In this document: piece by piece, positions 4,944 to 12,530 of the stretch | How the letters are laid out: each line of letters starts with the position of its first letter | Position numbering within the stretch: the first letter of the stretch is position 1 | From: a virus | DNA: 13,007 nt | Virus genome (UHGV): UHGV-0327156 | Strand: one strand, 5' to 3' | The notes under the pieces: model-generated | Told to the model about the DNA's origin: nothing | Databases searched by the model: none | The model's input: only the letters and a program-made list of their open reading frames with translations | Made by a program: the position numbers and the translations under genes

Positions 4944-6716
4944 ATGACCATCACCACAGACACCACTCTTTTACACGACCCGCGTCGTCAGGCGGCGCTG
5001 CTGTACTGGCAGGGATTTTCCGTGCCGCAGATTGCCGCCATGTTGCAGATGAAACGCCCGACGGTGCAGAGCTGGAAACAGCGCGACGGCTGGGACAGCG
5101 TTGCCCCCATCAGCCGTGTCGAAATGAGTCTGGAAGCGCGGCTGACCCAGCTCATCATCAAACCGCAGAAAACCGGCGGTGACTTCAAGGAAATTGACCT
5201 GCTCGGACGCCAGATTGAACGGCTGGCACGGGTCAACCGTTACAGCCAGACCGGCAACGAGGCAGACCTTAATCCGAACGTCGCTAACCGCAACAAAGGC
5301 GGGCGTCGCAAACCGAAAAAGAATTTTTTCAGTGACGAGGCCATCGAAAAGCTGGAGCAGATTTTCTTTGAGCAGTCTTTCGAGTATCAGTTGCACTGGT
5401 ATCGCGCCGGGCTTGAGCACCGCATCCGCGATATCCTGAAATCCCGCCAGATTGGCGCGACGTTTTATTTTTCCCGCGAGGCGCTGCTGCGCGCCCTGAA
5501 AACCGGTCATAACCAGATTTTTCTGTCGGCCAGTAAAACGCAGGCGTATGTGTTCCGCGAATACATCATCGCCTTTGCCCGGCTGGTTGACGTTGACCTG
5601 ACCGGTGACCCGATTGTCCTGGGCAATAACGGCGCAAAACTGATTTTTCTCGGCACCAACTCCAACACCGCGCAGAGCCATAACGGCGACCTGTACGTCG
5701 ATGAGATTTTCTGGATCCCGAATTTTCAGGTACTGCGTAAGGTGGCATCAGGTATGGCCTCACAGAGTCACCTGCGATCGACCTATTTCTCCACTCCGTC
5801 CACGCTGGCGCACGACGCCTACCCGTTCTGGTCGGGTGAACTGTTCAACCGGGGACGCGCCAGCGCCGCCGAACGCGTGGAAATCGACGTCAGTCATAAC
5901 GCCCTTGCCGATGGGCTTCTCTGTGCAGACGGCCAGTGGCGGCAGATTGTCACCATTGAGGACGCCCTGAAAGGTGGCTGCACGCTGTTCGACATTGAGC
6001 AGCTCAAACGCGAAAACAGCGCCGACGATTTTAAAAACCTGTTCATGTGTGAATTTGTTGACGACAAGGCGTCGGTGTTCCCGTTCGAGGAGTTGCAACG
6101 CTGCATGGTCGACACGCTGGAAGAATGGGAAGACTATGCACCCTTTGCCGCCAATCCGTTCGGCTCCCGCCCGGTATGGATTGGTTACGACCCGTCACAC
6201 CGTGGCGACAGCGCCGGATGCGTGGTGCTGGCACCGCCGGTGGTGGCCGGTGGCAAATTCAGAATACTTGAGCGTCACCAGTGGAAAGGCATGGACTTTG
6301 CCACTCAGGCTGAATCCATCCGCAAACTCACCGAAAAATATAACGTCGAATACATCGGTATTGATGCCACCGGCCTCGGTGTCGGCGTGTTCCAGCTCGT
6401 GCGCTCGTTCTATCCCGCCGCGCGCGACATCCGCTACACGCCGGAAATGAAAACCGCAATGGTGCTCAAGGCAAAAGACGTCATCCGCCGTGGCTGTCTG
6501 GAATATGACGTCAGCGCCACCGACATCACCAGCTCGTTTATGGCTATCCGCAAGACCATGACCAGCAGCGGACGCAGTGCCACCTATGAGGCCAGCCGCA
6601 GCGAGGAAGCCAGCCACGCCGACCTCGCCTGGGCGACCATGCACGCCCTGTTAAATGAGCCACTCACCGCCGGTATCAGCACCCCGCTGACATCCACCAT
6701 TCTGGAGTTTTACTGA
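4944..6716 (+). CDS. P: Terminase large (ATPase) subunit gpP-like, 590 aa
   Basis: ORF track starts at 4914 (non-ATG); the ATG at 4944 is preceded by GAGG with 5-nt spacing and gives 590 aa (MTITTDTTLLHDPRRQAALLYWQGF...). Its TGA stop overlaps the Q start (TGATG). Confidence 0.9.
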   Translation: MTITTDTTLLHDPRRQAALLYWQGFSVPQIAAMLQMKRPTVQSWKQRDGWDSVAPISRVEMSLEARLTQLIIKPQKTGGDFKEIDLLGRQIERLARVNRYSQTGNEADLNPNVANRNKGGRRKPKKNFFSDEAIEKLEQIFFEQSFEYQLHWYRAGLEHRIRDILKSRQIGATFYFSREALLRALKTGHNQIFLSASKTQAYVFREYIIAFARLVDVDLTGDPIVLGNNGAKLIFLGTNSNTAQSHNGDLYVDEIFWIPNFQVLRKVASGMASQSHLRSTYFSTPSTLAHDAYPFWSGELFNRGRASAAERVEIDVSHNALADGLLCADGQWRQIVTIEDALKGGCTLFDIEQLKRENSADDFKNLFMCEFVDDKASVFPFEELQRCMVDTLEEWEDYAPFAANPFGSRPVWIGYDPSHRGDSAGCVVLAPPVVAGGKFRILERHQWKGMDFATQAESIRKLTEKYNVEYIGIDATGLGVGVFQLVRSFYPAARDIRYTPEMKTAMVLKAKDVIRRGCLEYDVSATDITSSFMAIRKTMTSSGRSATYEASRSEEASHADLAWATMHALLNEPLTAGISTPLTSTILEFY

Positions 6717-7750
6717 TGAGCAAGAAAAAAGGGAAAACACCGCAACCTGCGGCAAAAAAAATGACCGCCAGCGCCCCGAAAATGGAGGCATTCACCTTTG
6801 GTGAGCCGGTGCCGGTACTCGACCGCCGTGACATTCTGGATTACGTCGAGTGCATCAGTAACGGCAGATGGTATGAGCCACCGGTCAGCTTTACCGGTCT
6901 GGCAAAAAGCCTGCGTGCTGCCGTACATCACAGCTCACCGATTTACGTTAAACGCAATATTCTGGCCTCGACATTTATCCCGCATCCGTGGCTTTCGCAA
7001 CAGGATTTCAGCCGCTTTGTGCTGGATTTTCTGGTGTTCGGTAATGCGTTTCTGGAAAAGCGTTACAGCACCACCTGTAAGGTCATCAGACTGGAAACCT
7101 CACCGGCCAAATATACCCGTCGTGGCGTGGAGGAGGATGTTTACTGGTGGGTGCCGTCCTTCAACGAGCCGACAGCCTTCGCGCCCGGCTCCGTGTTTCA
7201 CCTGCTGGAGCCGGATATTAATCAGGAGCTGTACGGCCTGCCGGAATATCTCAGCGCCCTTAACTCTGCCTGGCTGAATGAGTCAGCCACGCTGTTCCGC
7301 CGCAAGTATTACGAAAACGGCGCTCATGCCGGATACATCATGTACGTCACCGATGCCGTGCAGGACCGCAACGATATCGAAATGCTTCGCGAAAACATGG
7401 TGAAGTCAAAAGGCCGCAACAACTTTAAAAATCTGTTTCTCTATGCCCCGCAGGGGAAAGCTGACGGCATTAAAATTATCCCGCTCAGTGAAGTGGCAAC
7501 GAAGGACGATTTTTTTAATATCAAAAAAGCCAGCGCCGCTGACCTGCTGGACGCGCACCGCATCCCCTTTCAGTTGATGGGCGGCAAGCCGGAGAACGTC
7601 GGGTCGCTGGGTGATATTGAGAAAGTGGCAAAGGTCTTTGTCCGCAATGAGCTTATCCCGTTACAGGACAGGATTCGGGAAATAAACGGCTGGCTCGGTC
7701 AGGAGGTCATCCGCTTTAAAAACTACTCACTGGACACAGACAACGGCTGA
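6716..7750 (+). CDS. Q: Portal protein gpQ-like, 344 aa
   Basis: ATG at 6716 overlapping the P stop; 344 aa as recalled for P2 gpQ; last late gene before cos. Confidence 0.9.
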   Translation: MSKKKGKTPQPAAKKMTASAPKMEAFTFGEPVPVLDRRDILDYVECISNGRWYEPPVSFTGLAKSLRAAVHHSSPIYVKRNILASTFIPHPWLSQQDFSRFVLDFLVFGNAFLEKRYSTTCKVIRLETSPAKYTRRGVEEDVYWWVPSFNEPTAFAPGSVFHLLEPDINQELYGLPEYLSALNSAWLNESATLFRRKYYENGAHAGYIMYVTDAVQDRNDIEMLRENMVKSKGRNNFKNLFLYAPQGKADGIKIIPLSEVATKDDFFNIKKASAADLLDAHRIPFQLMGGKPENVGSLGDIEKVAKVFVRNELIPLQDRIREINGWLGQEVIRFKNYSLDTDNG

Positions 7751-7919: not shown

Positions 7920-7938
7920 GTGCTTTCCCCGCCTCGCC
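7920..7938. other. cos site (19-nt cohesive end, P2-type)
   Basis: Plus strand reads GTGCTTTCCCCGCCTCGCC, the reverse complement of GGCGAGGCGGGGAAAGCAC, which I recall as the P2 cohesive-end sequence; it lies next to the portal gene as in P2. Confidence 0.8.
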
Positions 7939-8039
7939 CGCCCGCTTCATGGAGCGCTTTTAATGCAGTTGCAATAACACATCAAAACATCGTCAATACA
8001 GGCGATTATAAACAATAAAAAACGATCGCTGCCGCATGC

Positions 8040-8061
8040 AAAATCATGCACTAAATGCATG
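8040..8061 (-). terminator. Putative terminator of the cargo gene
   Basis: CATGCA(8045..8050)/TGCATG(8056..8061) stem with a 5-nt loop, followed on the minus strand by AUUUUG; about 40 nt downstream of the 8102 stop. Short stem, so moderate confidence. Confidence 0.4.
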
Positions 8062-8101
8062 TATTGAAGGGAAATTAGGAACGTGCTCGTTTGGGTCTAA
8101 A

Positions 8102-8998
8102 CTATGATTTCGACACAACTATTTTCCCCAAATCAAAACTAAATTCGACATCCCCATTTACGATATTTTCATTTGTCACATGCTCATCAAAAAGGTCACT
8201 AACATCATACCCCGACTGAAACACTGGGCTCATGATAGCCACGTCGGTGAATGGCTCTTTTTCATGTGTTATATAATATTGACCATAAACATTTGCAGAT
8301 TTATCTGCATCATTAAGACTAAGGACTGTTTTTGCTTTGACTTCAGGCATCAGAGAAAAATCAATATTATTCAACAAACACAGTAAGATGCCTGCTATTG
8401 CTCTCCTGTTATTATCAAGCGGCATCAAGTCCACCCCTGGAATCTCCTTCCGAAGCAATATTTTCAGCTCATTAAATAAAGAGTCGAACTTAATTGCGTC
8501 AGAACAATTGAGTAACGACAAAGCTTCATTAATCATTCGCCCTTCATTGGAACCAATTTCTGGTGTTAACTTACAAACACCATCATTAACAATATACGAT
8601 TTCTTGTTATTAAGCTTCTTCCTCGCTGTAATTACCTGCCCCCCCTTTAAGTTTAACTTCTCCTTTAAAAACTCATCACTGAACATTCTTAATTGCAGTC
8701 TGATTAATGTAGGTAAGTATTTCGGGTATTCATTTAACTCTGGTTTAACAGCATGCTTATCGCGTCCAAATTTTAAACTTAATAACAAATGATTCCTCAG
8801 CATGATATCCTTTATCTCGCCTTGATCTCTCCGATGATTATGGGCAACAAAACTCCCAATTTCAAAAATACACTTGGGCGCACTCGGCAACTCACGGGCC
8901 GTAACAAAAAGAACATCAATATCACTATCAGTGAAACTCCCATCCTTTAATCTTCTCAACACTCTCTCTATTCTTGAGATTGCTTTACTTTTATTCAT
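8102..8998 (-). CDS. Hypothetical protein, 298 aa; AT-rich accessory cargo at the P2 old/tin hotspot; candidate anti-phage defence or exclusion protein
   Basis: Clean ATG at 8998..8996, uninterrupted 298 codons, GC about mid-30s % by eye against more than 50 % in flanking phage genes. Same orientation as the early operon. No Walker A, HNH, nucleotidyltransferase or HEPN motif that I can recognise. Confidence 0.8.
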   Translation of the reverse strand: MNKSKAISRIERVLRRLKDGSFTDSDIDVLFVTARELPSAPKCIFEIGSFVAHNHRRDQGEIKDIMLRNHLLLSLKFGRDKHAVKPELNEYPKYLPTLIRLQLRMFSDEFLKEKLNLKGGQVITARKKLNNKKSYIVNDGVCKLTPEIGSNEGRMINEALSLLNCSDAIKFDSLFNELKILLRKEIPGVDLMPLDNNRRAIAGILLCLLNNIDFSLMPEVKAKTVLSLNDADKSANVYGQYYITHEKEPFTDVAIMSPVFQSGYDVSDLFDEHVTNENIVNGDVEFSFDLGKIVVSKS

Positions 8999-9026
8999 GA
9001 CATTCTTTCAACCTTAATCAATATTT

Positions 9027-9055
9027 AATTTAAATAAACCATTCTCATACGCCAA
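9027..9055 (-). promoter_or_regulatory. Candidate sigma70 promoter for the cargo gene
   Basis: Minus strand TTGGCG (9055..9050), 17-nt spacer, TAAATT (9032..9027), about 30 nt upstream of the ATG. Weak matches in AT-rich DNA; could be chance. Confidence 0.25.
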
Positions 9056-9280
9056 CCATACCTGTGACACCTGACAAACCAAATAAAAACAAAGGTACAG
9101 CGGATATTGGTATGTACAGCTATATTACACATAAACTCATGTTAGTAACATAAGATCTTCTTGTGAATATTTGTAATTTATTAGTTCACCAACATTAATC
9201 TTTCCAACCGTTATAAATCCAATCATATGCTGATACTCAAATGATGGCCAACTACCACCTCTCGCTGTTCGTTGTTCCCT

Positions 9281-9315
9281 CCAGCAGCACTGGAAGCATG
9301 TTTCAGTACTGCTGG
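9281..9315 (+). terminator. Strong stem-loop (12-bp stem, one mismatch, 11-nt loop) followed by GGTTTTCT on the plus strand
   Basis: CCAGCAGCACTG / CAGTACTGCTGG inverted repeat at 9281..9292 and 9304..9315. The U-tract is only on the plus strand, so it looks like a terminator facing against the early operon, at the junction between the conserved early genes and the AT-rich cargo. Confidence 0.35.
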
Positions 9316-9324
9316 GGTTTTCTA

Positions 9325-9528
9325 TCAACAACGTGGTAGCAGTGCAATTTTAGACTGTTCTATATCGTTAAACCGCACGTAATTATCCCGGACTATTTCG
9401 GCACACCCGACCAACTCGTCGGGCGTCAGATTTTCGTTGACCATAATCTGCTGTAGACGGTGAACAATAGCCATCAGCTTGATATTTTTAGTGTTATGTT
9501 GCGGTATCTCGCCTGGTATTCTGTGCAT
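9325..9528 (-). CDS. Small hypothetical protein, 67 aa, translationally coupled to the upstream gene
   Basis: ATG at 9528..9526 overlaps the TAA stop of the DUF3850 gene (TAATG). The ORF track's 71-aa version begins at a GTG. No recognisable motif. Confidence 0.55.
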   Translation of the reverse strand: MHRIPGEIPQHNTKNIKLMAIVHRLQQIMVNENLTPDELVGCAEIVRDNYVRFNDIEQSKIALLPRC

Positions 9529-9983
9529 TATCCAAGCCACCCGTTTTGCTTTGCACGCTCAATCTGTTCATCTGAATAGTTCCATGCTCCATCCGTGGCA
9601 ACCATTGCCCCGCCAGACATCCCCGTCTCTGGTTCATACATAACAGCAAGGCCGAGCTGATGCATAATTTCATGATTAATTCTGAATACCAGACCACGCT
9701 CACTAAGTTCTTTCCAGTTCACAATCTCATATGCGCCTGTATTAAGCAGCTCAATACTTAGCAAGACATAATCTTCCAGCCAGTCTGACAGGTCAGTAAC
9801 ATCTGTTATCCGGGCTTCAACCTTTCGCCCCGTATACACACCCTGCCCCCATTCATGCAAAATCAACGTGTCTCCGCGCTCATAATTACGGTCATTTTTC
9901 CGAAACTCTGCGCGTTTCTTTCCTTCCAGCACAAGGTCGAAATATTTTGCGTGCAGCTTTACCTCGTGAATTTTTGCCATCAT
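9528..9983 (-). CDS. DUF3850/ASCH-like (PUA-fold) protein with a C-terminal HExxH-containing extension, 151 aa
   Basis: ATG at 9983..9981 overlaps the A stop (ATGA). The N-terminus KIHEVKLHAKYFDLVLEGKKRAEFRKNDRNYERGDTLILHEW matches the DUF3850 signature I recall (HElKi...yF..vl.G.K.fE.RkNDR....GD.L.L.E). The C-terminal part contains HEIMH. Confidence 0.7.
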   Translation of the reverse strand: MMAKIHEVKLHAKYFDLVLEGKKRAEFRKNDRNYERGDTLILHEWGQGVYTGRKVEARITDVTDLSDWLEDYVLLSIELLNTGAYEIVNWKELSERGLVFRINHEIMHQLGLAVMYEPETGMSGGAMVATDGAWNYSDEQIERAKQNGWLG

Positions 9984-12265
9984 GTCCACTCCATTACTGT
10001 TGAGAATCCCGGCCACTCATCAGCGACCGGATATGTGAATTTTTTCCCGTCATAATTTACAGTCGCGCCACGCGCCAACGCCTCAAGCTCCCATCGCTGC
10101 GGCCTTATACCGTTCTGAGCAAGGTCAACGCGGATACGGGTAATTTGCATTCTTTCCGACCGGGTCAGTCTGGCCGATGGTGCAATTTCATGTGGTTTTA
10201 ACGGGCTTCCGTTTCTTTGCTGACGATTTGGCGTTCTCAGGCCGTGTTTTAATGCGCCCCTGAGCGCCCTCACAACCTCCGGGTCATTCCATTCGATAAC
10301 ACCGTCATCAACCAGATTAAGCACTGCTGCGGCGTGCTCAGAAGGTGTGGGAGCCGGTAACGAAGTATCACAACCGGTGACCTTTCCACAGTTATTGACA
10401 GGACTCCGAGGCGCGGCGATGCCGCTTTTTAAAGTCAAAGGCTCAACGACCGGAACTTTCGGCACAATGCGCCAGTCCGTCGTTCTGGTGATATGAATAT
10501 GACGCGCGCCGAGATGCGGCGCGTAAATGCCGACCACTCTCTCGACTTCTTCCTCGTACTCGTTAACGTCATCCGACGGGCTACGGGCAACCCTGACAGT
10601 CTGACAATCGCGTGGGACATTTGCCCCGCCCTGCGCGCTGATATACAACGCAAAATCACCACTGTCTGCGGCGGCGCGTGCAGCCTCGACGCGTTCGTCA
10701 AACTCATCAGCAATGCTGACGCCGCGAGGCAATTTGCGTAGTTCACGGTAAGCCCCCATTGTCGGCAGACCAACCGTTTTAAATTGCGGGATACGCCACG
10801 TTGACGCCCATGCGGTAACAGCCGCTGCAGTGTCTTTCAGCGGTCTGCCGGTATCGTTATCGAGCTGCCCATCCAGTGCATAGCCGTCGATATTTTTTGA
10901 GATGTATTTCGCGATATACCCCGCAGCACCGCCCCGATTAAGATGTTTTGCCTGAAAACGGTTTCGCGCAGCTCCTCTTTCGTCGCCATCCTCTTTGAGC
11001 GCGTAGCGACGCATGATTTCGATAATCTGGTTACGCTGGCGTGGATTACAAAAAAGCATCATATGCCAGTGCGGCGTTCCGTCGTGGTGTGGCTCGACGA
11101 CTCGCAAACCGTAGACCTGTAAATCATTATCCTTGAATGCCGTGCGCATCAGGCTCCAGATACGGCAGAGATAACGCTGCGCATCCTTTGGATTAAATGC
11201 CTCATCGTTCCAGCCGTGATTTAGCTGGACGGTTTTACTTTCGCCTTTTCCAACCTGACGTGTCGGGTGATACTTTGACGGCGCGGTCAGCGTGATAAAC
11301 ATCCCCACATCACCCTCTGCAGCGGCGTAACGCTCAATACCGGCAATGGTGTTCATCAGCTCCATCCGGCGAATTTCAGGATTAGAAATACTGCCCATCA
11401 CCTTACTGATAAGGTCGATGCGCTCGCCTGTTTCCCTGTTTTCGAGATCACACGATTTAAGAAATTCCAGATTTGCCTGGCGGCGTGCACGCACATCACG
11501 AATGGCATGTTTACTGGCATAAGGAGAACGGTCTTTATTGACCTCCCCGACAGCAATCAGTAACGCCTCATGCCAGCGCATACGCTGGCCTTTAAGCTGA
11601 CTAATCCACCACTCATCGTTAAACAGACGGGCAATGGCAGAATATGCCTGCCTCGTGGTCATCTGTCCTTTACGGTATTTTTTCCAGTAGAGAGGGGAAA
11701 TATTGAAAGCTCGTGCAGCGCCAGCAACATGACCATACAGGTGATCCTGAGCCTCATCCGTAAACAGTGATTCTTTCTCGCCATGCGCATCCACCCAGGC
11801 ATCGCTGAGTTCCTCATACATCATGAAAAGCTGCGATGAGATACGGGCGGCAAACTTTTTCAGCTCCTTGTCATTCATTCCCGGCAGGCGCGCATAGTGG
11901 TCACGCTCAGCCAGAAACAGCATCGACGCGTCGGTGTTCATTTCATGGCGCTGATTCACACGCTCAATGCGCGGCCATAAACGACGCTGAAAAGTGGATG
12001 TGAGGAAATAAAACCCGTGCACCGGGCTTTTATTGCGCCGGATGTAGTCATAGCGTGACGTAAACAGCGAGCGCAAAAAGTAAGGCAGGCGGTTAATCGT
12101 GGATAAAACACCTTGCACCTGACGCATCTCGTCACGTGTAAGGGGTCTTTCGCGCCCGACAGCCTCGCGTGGCGCGTTCCATGCATAAGCACCGGTAAAC
12201 GTCTTACCGGTGCCTGCGGCAAATGCTGACGGAGGGACAAAACGCCCGGAGGCTTTAACGGCCAT
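9980..12265 (-). CDS. A: Rolling-circle replication initiator endonuclease gpA-like, 761 aa
   Basis: The ORF track's 775 aa start at a TTG (12307); the internal ATG at 12265..12263 gives 761 aa starting MAVKASGRFVPPSAFAAGTGK..., the P2 gpA length and N-terminus I recall. Confidence 0.9.
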   Translation of the reverse strand: MAVKASGRFVPPSAFAAGTGKTFTGAYAWNAPREAVGRERPLTRDEMRQVQGVLSTINRLPYFLRSLFTSRYDYIRRNKSPVHGFYFLTSTFQRRLWPRIERVNQRHEMNTDASMLFLAERDHYARLPGMNDKELKKFAARISSQLFMMYEELSDAWVDAHGEKESLFTDEAQDHLYGHVAGAARAFNISPLYWKKYRKGQMTTRQAYSAIARLFNDEWWISQLKGQRMRWHEALLIAVGEVNKDRSPYASKHAIRDVRARRQANLEFLKSCDLENRETGERIDLISKVMGSISNPEIRRMELMNTIAGIERYAAAEGDVGMFITLTAPSKYHPTRQVGKGESKTVQLNHGWNDEAFNPKDAQRYLCRIWSLMRTAFKDNDLQVYGLRVVEPHHDGTPHWHMMLFCNPRQRNQIIEIMRRYALKEDGDERGAARNRFQAKHLNRGGAAGYIAKYISKNIDGYALDGQLDNDTGRPLKDTAAAVTAWASTWRIPQFKTVGLPTMGAYRELRKLPRGVSIADEFDERVEAARAAADSGDFALYISAQGGANVPRDCQTVRVARSPSDDVNEYEEEVERVVGIYAPHLGARHIHITRTTDWRIVPKVPVVEPLTLKSGIAAPRSPVNNCGKVTGCDTSLPAPTPSEHAAAVLNLVDDGVIEWNDPEVVRALRGALKHGLRTPNRQQRNGSPLKPHEIAPSARLTRSERMQITRIRVDLAQNGIRPQRWELEALARGATVNYDGKKFTYPVADEWPGFSTVMEWT

Positions 12266-12530
12266 ATGAGCCAAAAGCCTCTGAACAACGCTTGCTGAGT
12301 TGCTCAACCTGCGCGTTTAAATCAGCAAAAGACTTTGCGCTTCCGGTCAGAATATCGTGATGCATCAGGCCGGAAACGAGCTGGCTTAATTTCGGGTAAT
12401 AACCAACCACCGCCAGCCATTCCTGACCGGCGTTTTTACCGCTTTCCGCTCTCTTTTTCTCGTGGAGAATAAACTGGAAGCTGTCACTGGTAACGACATA
12501 ACGTTCGCCAATTTCAATACGAATACTCAT
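12255..12530 (-). CDS. Small early-operon protein, 91 aa, function unknown (P2 orf8x-like position)
   Basis: ATG at 12530..12528 with GGAGAA 6 nt upstream; overlaps the A start by 11 nt. Composition like the phage backbone. Confidence 0.7.
   Translation of the reverse strand: MSIRIEIGERYVVTSDSFQFILHEKKRAESGKNAGQEWLAVVGYYPKLSQLVSGLMHHDILTGSAKSFADLNAQVEQLSKRCSEAFGSYGR

Follow-up and report, generated by a model that had tools for sequence, protein, structure and literature searches.

A lone AT-rich cargo gene in the old/tin hotspot of a P2-like Escherichia coli prophage and its possible role in anti-phage defence

The interval of phage P2 between the replication gene gpA and cos is occupied by old and tin. 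Tin, in whose 252 aa no enzymatic domain has been recognised, is a lysogenic-conversion exclusion factor, and Old has an anti-phage function that is expressed in the lysogen. The hotspot formed by this interval is enriched in defence functions: three of eight further P2 systems that were tested gave protection (PMC9122126), and defence-associated genes are present in 49-81% of P2 elements (bioRxiv 10.64898/2026.02.27.708500). Non-defence cargo is also found there, including partition systems in ~25% of loci and a cytolethal distending toxin (PMC9122126). Rst_DUF4238 and other validated single-gene systems of the hotspot are AT-rich, encode proteins of ~290-300 aa and were formerly of unknown function, features that the gene described here shares with them.

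The window, which is the whole stretch of 13,007 nucleotides that was analysed, belongs to a P2-like (Peduovirus) prophage of E. coli, in which capsid, scaffold, terminase and portal genes were annotated with PHROG and RefSeq. The hotspot is bordered on one side by the portal gene gpQ (6716-7750, plus strand; PHROG 68, RefSeq) and on the other by the gene for the gpA replication endonuclease (9980-12307, minus strand; PHROG 91, RefSeq). The cohesive-end sequence cos was located at 7920-7938 (minus strand) by an exact 19/19 match to the reverse complement of the annotated P2 cosR (AF063097). Next to gpA lies a DUF3850/ASCH orf91-like gene (9528-10016, minus strand), assigned to the backbone by PHROG, RefSeq and comparison with P2. 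It is followed by a gp92-like small ORF (WP_021517479.1; 9325-9540, minus strand; PHROG 11386), which adjoins other cargo in Wphi (gp92) and 9W and is semi-conserved backbone, not cargo. These positions bear out the initial annotation, which had placed the gene of interest in the P2 old/tin hotspot between cos and the replication operon. The similarity of sequenced P2-like phages to the window ended at ~7979 and returned at 9133-9250; the foreign segment was thus delimited to ~1.15 kb (~7980-9133, no strand assigned), with a GC content of 0.366, P2-like backbone at both sides and a single gene.

That gene is a 298-codon ORF on the minus strand (8102-8998), whose ATG was the first start past the upstream stop in the ORF list and translation, and is preceded by the purine runs AAGG/GAAAG. 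An identical CDS is present in RefSeq as WP_001043197.1, 'hypothetical protein', in agreement with the earlier description of a single 298-aa ORF with a clean ATG, and the product matched PHROG 29586 over its full length. An open run of 298 codons would arise by chance with a probability of ~1e-9 (stops making up ~6.8% of codons at 37% GC), and the frame was kept at full length in 34 homologue clusters. The GC content of the gene was 0.369 and its GC3 0.368, against GC contents of 0.529 for the portal, 0.573 for the terminase and 0.532 for the gpA gene and a backbone GC3 of 0.54-0.71, so the initial claim of a GC content far below that of the phage backbone was upheld by calculation. The ORF is a real gene, foreign to the prophage and AT-rich.

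Among 5,426 complete E. coli genomes, the flanks of the segment matched in 2,140 and the cargo was present in only 25, where it was intact at 99.5-100% identity. Different cargo was found at the same place in related phages: a cytosine methylase gene in Wphi, other genes in 9W, P24A7b and vB_YpM_50, and old/tin in P2. Homologues down to 45-49% identity, from Dickeya and one other genome, stood alone between gpA (or DinI) and portal in P2/186-like prophages. The three tests applied for hotspot cargo, namely position between gpA/orf91 and cos/portal, variable content of the interval and a composition unlike the backbone, all fitted the gene, which entered the P2 gpA-cos-portal (old/tin) hotspot as cargo by horizontal transfer. 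It is co-directional with gpA, as is the cargo of Wphi, 9W, vB_YpM_50 and P24A7b, whereas old/tin of P2 (2185-4881 in locus L021) run in the opposite direction, from a promoter adjoining cos towards gpA. The hotspot therefore takes cargo in both orientations. In E. coli EC9952 (L025, 753-1721) and 23CRST029, a copy of IS903B was observed between the stop of the ORF and the portal gene, ~50 bp 3' of the stop in the terminator-like region, and the ORF was intact.

The cargo protein resembles Tin in size, in the lack of a recognised enzymatic domain and in its location, but the two show no sequence relation, and Tin travels with old whereas the cargo gene is alone. A relationship to Tin was rejected at an hhalign probability of 0.14%. 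Old shares the hotspot, but the cargo protein is half its size, has neither an ATPase nor a TOPRIM domain, and had no Pfam or PADLOC match; membership of the OLD nuclease family (ABC ATPase plus TOPRIM) was rejected in the absence of a match in Pfam, NCBIfam or PADLOC. There was likewise no DUF4238 match, and DUF4238 is a protective system, whereas the cargo protein is catalogued only, as 'System #75' (PMC9122126). One distant member of its family was located ~2.6 kb from a DUF4238 gene.

The initial annotation had proposed an undescribed family. This does not hold, as the cargo protein is the single-protein 'System #75' in Table S5B of Rousset et al. 2022, recorded in 53 of 18,150 P2 loci, with no Pfam domain, signal peptide or TM segment, and it also appears in Table S5A within loci of the type 'DUF3850/ASCH + hypothetical + hypothetical' (PMC9122126). 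WP_001043197.1 is furthermore a 'predicted novel defense gene' in Table S10 of DefensePredictor 2026 (DeWeirdt, Mahoney and Laub; PMC13092281), with a mean log-odds of 4.64 (range 3.29-5.42) relative to a strict cutoff of 4, and with the HHblits and Foldseek columns empty and no known defence homologue. In that study 42 of 94 cloned high-scoring units (45%) were validated, and the rate climbed with the score (PMC13092281). From these two listings, the gene is an already known candidate and not an unnoticed one. The cargo protein was not found in the tables of cloned or tested systems of PMC9122126 or PMC13092281, or in the supplements of Vassallo et al. 2022 (PMC9519451). Motif strings retrieved no tested homologue from the DefensePredictor supplements, a weak negative as these files may lack sequences. 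The DefensePredictor entry, whose cluster WP_001043197.1 is the cargo protein itself, is a machine-learning prediction and gives no structure, family extent or conserved site. The present analysis adds exact boundaries for the cargo, shows how far the superfamily extends and that its members live alone on mobile elements, and supplies two confident models and a set of invariant residues.

The cargo protein had no match in Pfam, NCBIfam or PADLOC at E ≤ 10 (0 families in PADLOC-DB 2.0), and PHROG 29586, to which no function is assigned, was its only match. When 45-47 diverse superfamily members were compared with Pfam, NCBIfam and PADLOC, scattered single matches were obtained at E = 0.003-0.009, with nothing consistent in PADLOC-DB 2.0 among 47 members. 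These matches were treated as chance because each was confined to one member. A sequence search of the PDB with two profiles returned nothing below E = 0.4. The earlier view that no common defence domain can be recognised in the protein is consistent with these empty searches, in which no confident homology to a phage structural or replication protein, or to a characterised defence protein, was found either.

The protein is soluble, without a transmembrane segment, and has a pI of 7.7. AlphaFold2, run on a 25-sequence alignment, gave a model with a pLDDT of 91.5 and a pTM of 0.85, in which an all-helical region of ~210 residues is followed by a beta-sheet domain. The model of a distant homologue, P0051 (23% identical), had a pLDDT of 95.8 and the same order of helices and strands. 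Both models were confident and neither had a fold match. In the middle of the protein, three helices and a beta-hairpin (codons 95-145; 8564-8716, minus strand), with the basic segment KGGQVITARKKLNNKKS, follow an order like that of a winged helix-turn-helix (DSSP: helices 95-103, 108-115 and 119-129, strands 135-138 and 141-144), which was the same in P0051. We infer from secondary-structure order alone that residues 95-145 may be winged-helix-like; the order fitted in the two models, yet no significant fold or profile match was obtained and the Foldseek probability for MarR was ≤ ~0.15.

This helix-helix-helix-hairpin order, together with the basic helix KGGQVITARKKL, would suit a non-defence accessory protein of mobile elements, such as a DNA-binding regulator or a maintenance or stability factor that alters the physiology of the host or of the element. 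Partition and virulence genes are also cargo of the P2 hotspot, members of the family occur on small plasmids with very few genes, and the neighbours of chromosomal members are largely housekeeping genes. Nevertheless, we consider such a role rather unlikely. No HTH or regulator family was matched in Pfam or NCBIfam by the 45-47 members, the low MarR probability from Foldseek argues against it, and the invariant residues are in an N-terminal loop, outside the putative recognition helix. No conserved target gene or neighbour was found, and the DefensePredictor score is over its cutoff.

Conservation was assessed over 139 sequences, comprising the window protein and 138 matches from the representative library. 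A superfamily signature, R35...E46...A52-H53...R57..G60, was located at codons 35-60 (8819-8896, minus strand), with the consensus LR-x10-E-[IV]-x-x-F-V-A-H-N-x-x-R-[DN]-x-G. R35, H53 and G60 were conserved in 100% of the sequences, A52 in 99%, R57 in 96%, F22 in 95%, E46 in 91% and P92 in 90%. The invariant polar residues were all within 35-60, and residues 52-60, the AH...R..G part, form a loop with a dip in pLDDT. On the basis of this conservation, codons 35-60 are proposed to be an active or ligand-binding site; for the His/Arg/Glu cluster, a role in binding or in the structure of the protein is equally possible. The all-helical fold, the invariant Arg and His, and an '...AH' at a helix end that recalls 'RNxxAH' are shared with HEPN-type RNases (Rx4-6H), and in single-protein Abi systems a HEPN module frequently acts as the effector. 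A HEPN identity, defined by an Rx4-6H motif within a four-helix fold and suggested by 'FVAH' and by one Cas13b match (E = 0.0087) in a single member, was rejected for its wrong motif order and lack of a fold match. The C-terminal beta-sheet domain (codons 211-298; 8105-8368, minus strand), delimited from DSSP strands, entropy and homologue coverage, was the most variable part of the protein. Column entropy in the close family rose from 0.86 for residues 1-60 to 1.71 for residues 211-298, and this domain is proposed to be a specificity or sensor module.

An exhaustive profile search of 1.84 billion representatives, clustered at 50% identity, yielded at least 438 superfamily clusters at E ≤ 1e-3, 128 of them at E ≤ 1e-10; a word-indexed protein search with the broad profile A2 largely recovered the close family again. 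Judged by these profile matches, the cargo protein is part of an unannotated superfamily that extends across the Proteobacteria and lies outside Pfam. Nearly all members were of 280-345 aa, and most of the distant ones aligned only over ~residues 8-230. In one clade, of ~327 aa, 238 clusters were counted at 90% identity; its genera include Vibrio, Acinetobacter, Aeromonas and Marinobacter. A protein of 6,164 aa, P0133, had 34 separate stretches that matched profile positions 249-287; P0133 is probably not a true relative but a protein whose beta-strand repeat imitates a portion of the C-terminal domain. No homologue was found by tblastn, with the window protein and its Klebsiella relative, in 50,697 sequenced-phage records.

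Each family member stood as a single gene, and the surroundings were diverse. The GC content of the member was below that of its flanks in 13 of 13 family loci. A member from Vibrio parahaemolyticus was in an islet of ~5 kb with an integrase and a resolvase, one from Marinobacter was ~400 bp from a tRNA-Leu gene, one on a Pseudoalteromonas megaplasmid was between IS elements, and members from Pseudomonas and Limnohabitans adjoined a baseplate gene and a Fic gene, respectively. Many others stood by themselves in chromosomal islets that lack the backbone of a mobile element. Single cases were near genes for DUF4238, a KAP NTPase, AbiU, and a type II cytosine methyltransferase with HNH endonucleases; housekeeping genes made up most of the 93 neighbours scanned at distant loci, and the link of the family to defence genes was modest. 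A conserved neighbour was sought across more than 12 family loci and none was found, as the immediate neighbours shared no similarity, and a two-gene system or TA pair was rejected on this result. Overall, the family behaves like a small accessory gene, self-sufficient and horizontally mobile.

Two loci gave side observations on neighbouring genes. In a Rhizobiales locus (L017, 6634-7992), a 452-aa protein with a MauJ-like domain is encoded by a gene that overlaps the start of the member by 4 nt, which suggests an operon and was the sole hint of a possible partner. At the end of a lambdoid prophage of Klebsiella, a distant homologue was found beside other unknown cargo: a DUF6236 protein and a 220-aa protein without a Pfam match (L005, 9186-10752) adjoin it. 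Both are encoded in the stretch that separates the tail-fibre genes from the end of the prophage, and they may represent additional cargo that is still uncharacterised.

Two plasmids bear on a further reading, in which the gene is an orphan toxin, an addiction module, or an initiator of plasmid replication that belongs to no recognised type. Besides a family member, the Psychrobacter plasmid pA21BP1 (L022; 5,342 bp) encodes MobA/MobL and has two small ORFs without a known function, with no recognisable Rep domain among its annotated genes, and Rep_3 initiators are proteins of ~300 aa with winged helices. On an 11-kb plasmid of Acinetobacter pittii, the member is flanked by BrnTA and MqsA-like toxin-antitoxin pairs. 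The Acinetobacter plasmid has Rep genes of its own, however, and P2 replicates by means of gpA. Neither a Rep_3 nor a toxin match was obtained by sequence or fold, and a Rep_3-type initiator was rejected after neither a Rep_3 profile match nor a RepE/pi-like fold was found. With no conserved adjacent partner of antitoxin size, and with intact copies at 99-100% identity in 25 E. coli genomes, a toxin or an initiator is highly improbable.

The carriage of the family by prophages and plasmids alike would be consistent with a counter-defence (anti-immune) protein, which inhibits host defence and helps the mobile element to establish itself, and unknown folds are common among anti-defence proteins. 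Most known anti-defence inhibitors are smaller than a 298-aa protein with an enzyme-like cluster, however, and the many members in chromosomal islets without a mobile-element backbone also argue against this function. Anti-defence genes do occur in some P2 elements, but in only 28 of 1,511 (bioRxiv 10.64898/2026.02.27.708500), and a counter-defence role was judged improbable.

Our preferred reading, to which a probability of about 0.4 is given, is that the gene encodes a standalone single-polypeptide anti-phage protein of the sensor-effector type, acting by exclusion or abortive infection. Expression of the cargo protein by the prophage would guard the host against unrelated phages. The C-terminal beta-domain, perhaps together with the winged-helix-like middle, would recognise a component of the infecting phage (protein or nucleic acid), and this recognition would turn on the conserved N-terminal all-helical module. 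The Arg35/Glu46/His53/Arg57 cluster might then bind or cleave a phosphate-bearing target (RNA, DNA or nucleotide), for which metal-independent His/Arg/Glu chemistry would be the simplest reading, and phage replication would be blocked. We infer this mechanism as a whole; immune proteins of a single polypeptide commonly couple a conserved effector to a variable sensor. It can be argued that the protein is harmless until triggered, because there is no partner gene and an intact copy is stably carried.

An anti-phage function is favoured by the hotspot position, the turnover of cargo there, the enrichment of the hotspot in defence and the DefensePredictor score. It is also favoured by superfamily behaviour that is typical of mobile defence genes (presence on mobile elements, low GC, no fixed neighbour), and by the same structural order in two models, the invariant polar residues, and a variability that rises from the N- to the C-terminus. 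Against it, the log-odds of 4.64 is barely over the cutoff and the validation rate drops at lower scores, the hotspot also takes non-defence cargo, the association with defence genes is modest, and no catalytic fold or motif was recognised. The promoter and terminator signals at chance level, and the 50,697 phage records without a homologue, weigh on the same side. The wider proposal, that the superfamily of at least 438 clusters consists of single-gene mobile anti-phage proteins with a fold absent from the PDB, combining a new all-helical effector, catalytic or ligand-binding and built on the invariant R...E...AH...R..G loop, with a fast-evolving beta sensor, is possible but doubtful. If the cargo protein does turn out to be protective, it would provide a new single-gene immune family, a new fold and four or five residues to mutate, as well as hundreds of natural variants for specificity mapping from E. 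coli, Klebsiella, Vibrio and Acinetobacter, which are clinically relevant. It would also put a DefensePredictor call barely over the cutoff cleanly to the test. Should it not be protective, it would illustrate that the most-cited hotspot of phage defence also takes up cargo of other kinds, and would advise caution in assigning function from position alone.

The signals around the cargo gene were also inspected. A scan found a promoter-like TTCACA-17-TAACAT (9139-9167, minus strand; 9/12 matches), a candidate cargo promoter right at the cargo junction, and a second promoter-like hexamer pair upstream of the gene (9222-9251, minus strand). A pattern scan found a terminator-like hairpin, CAUGCAU-UUA-GUGCAUG, with a 7-bp stem followed by AUUUUG, 41 nt past the stop (8045-8061, minus strand). 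The candidate promoter and downstream hairpin of the initial annotation are thus present, but the promoter-like sites were not in excess of those in shuffled sequences (6 versus 4.9 ± 2.4), and the 3' region of the gene folded no better than shuffles (z = -0.33).

In the 325-nt gap upstream of the gene, Rfam matches were sub-threshold and chance-like only, and a non-coding RNA was rejected. A 64-codon ORF with a TTG start (9137-9331) was taken as non-coding because it is absent from the RefSeq and 9W annotations and its alignment with 9W contains indels. The AT-rich, non-coding stretch of ~190 bp at 9133-9325, within which the TTCACA-17-TAACAT site falls, was common to phages 9W, P22H4 and P24A7b, each of which has unrelated cargo. 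It may serve as a promoter for whatever cargo is present, or as a junction at which recombination exchanges one cargo for another. Where the replication genes give way to the cargo, just 3' of the gp92-like ORF, RNAalifold on five P2-like sequences gave a conserved stem-loop (9278-9319, minus strand), with no U-run after it in the window. It has 17 pairs, three of them preserved by double changes, is kept in 9W, Wphi, vB_YpM_50 and P24A7b, and might terminate transcripts of the early operon, or regulate them, ahead of the cargo.
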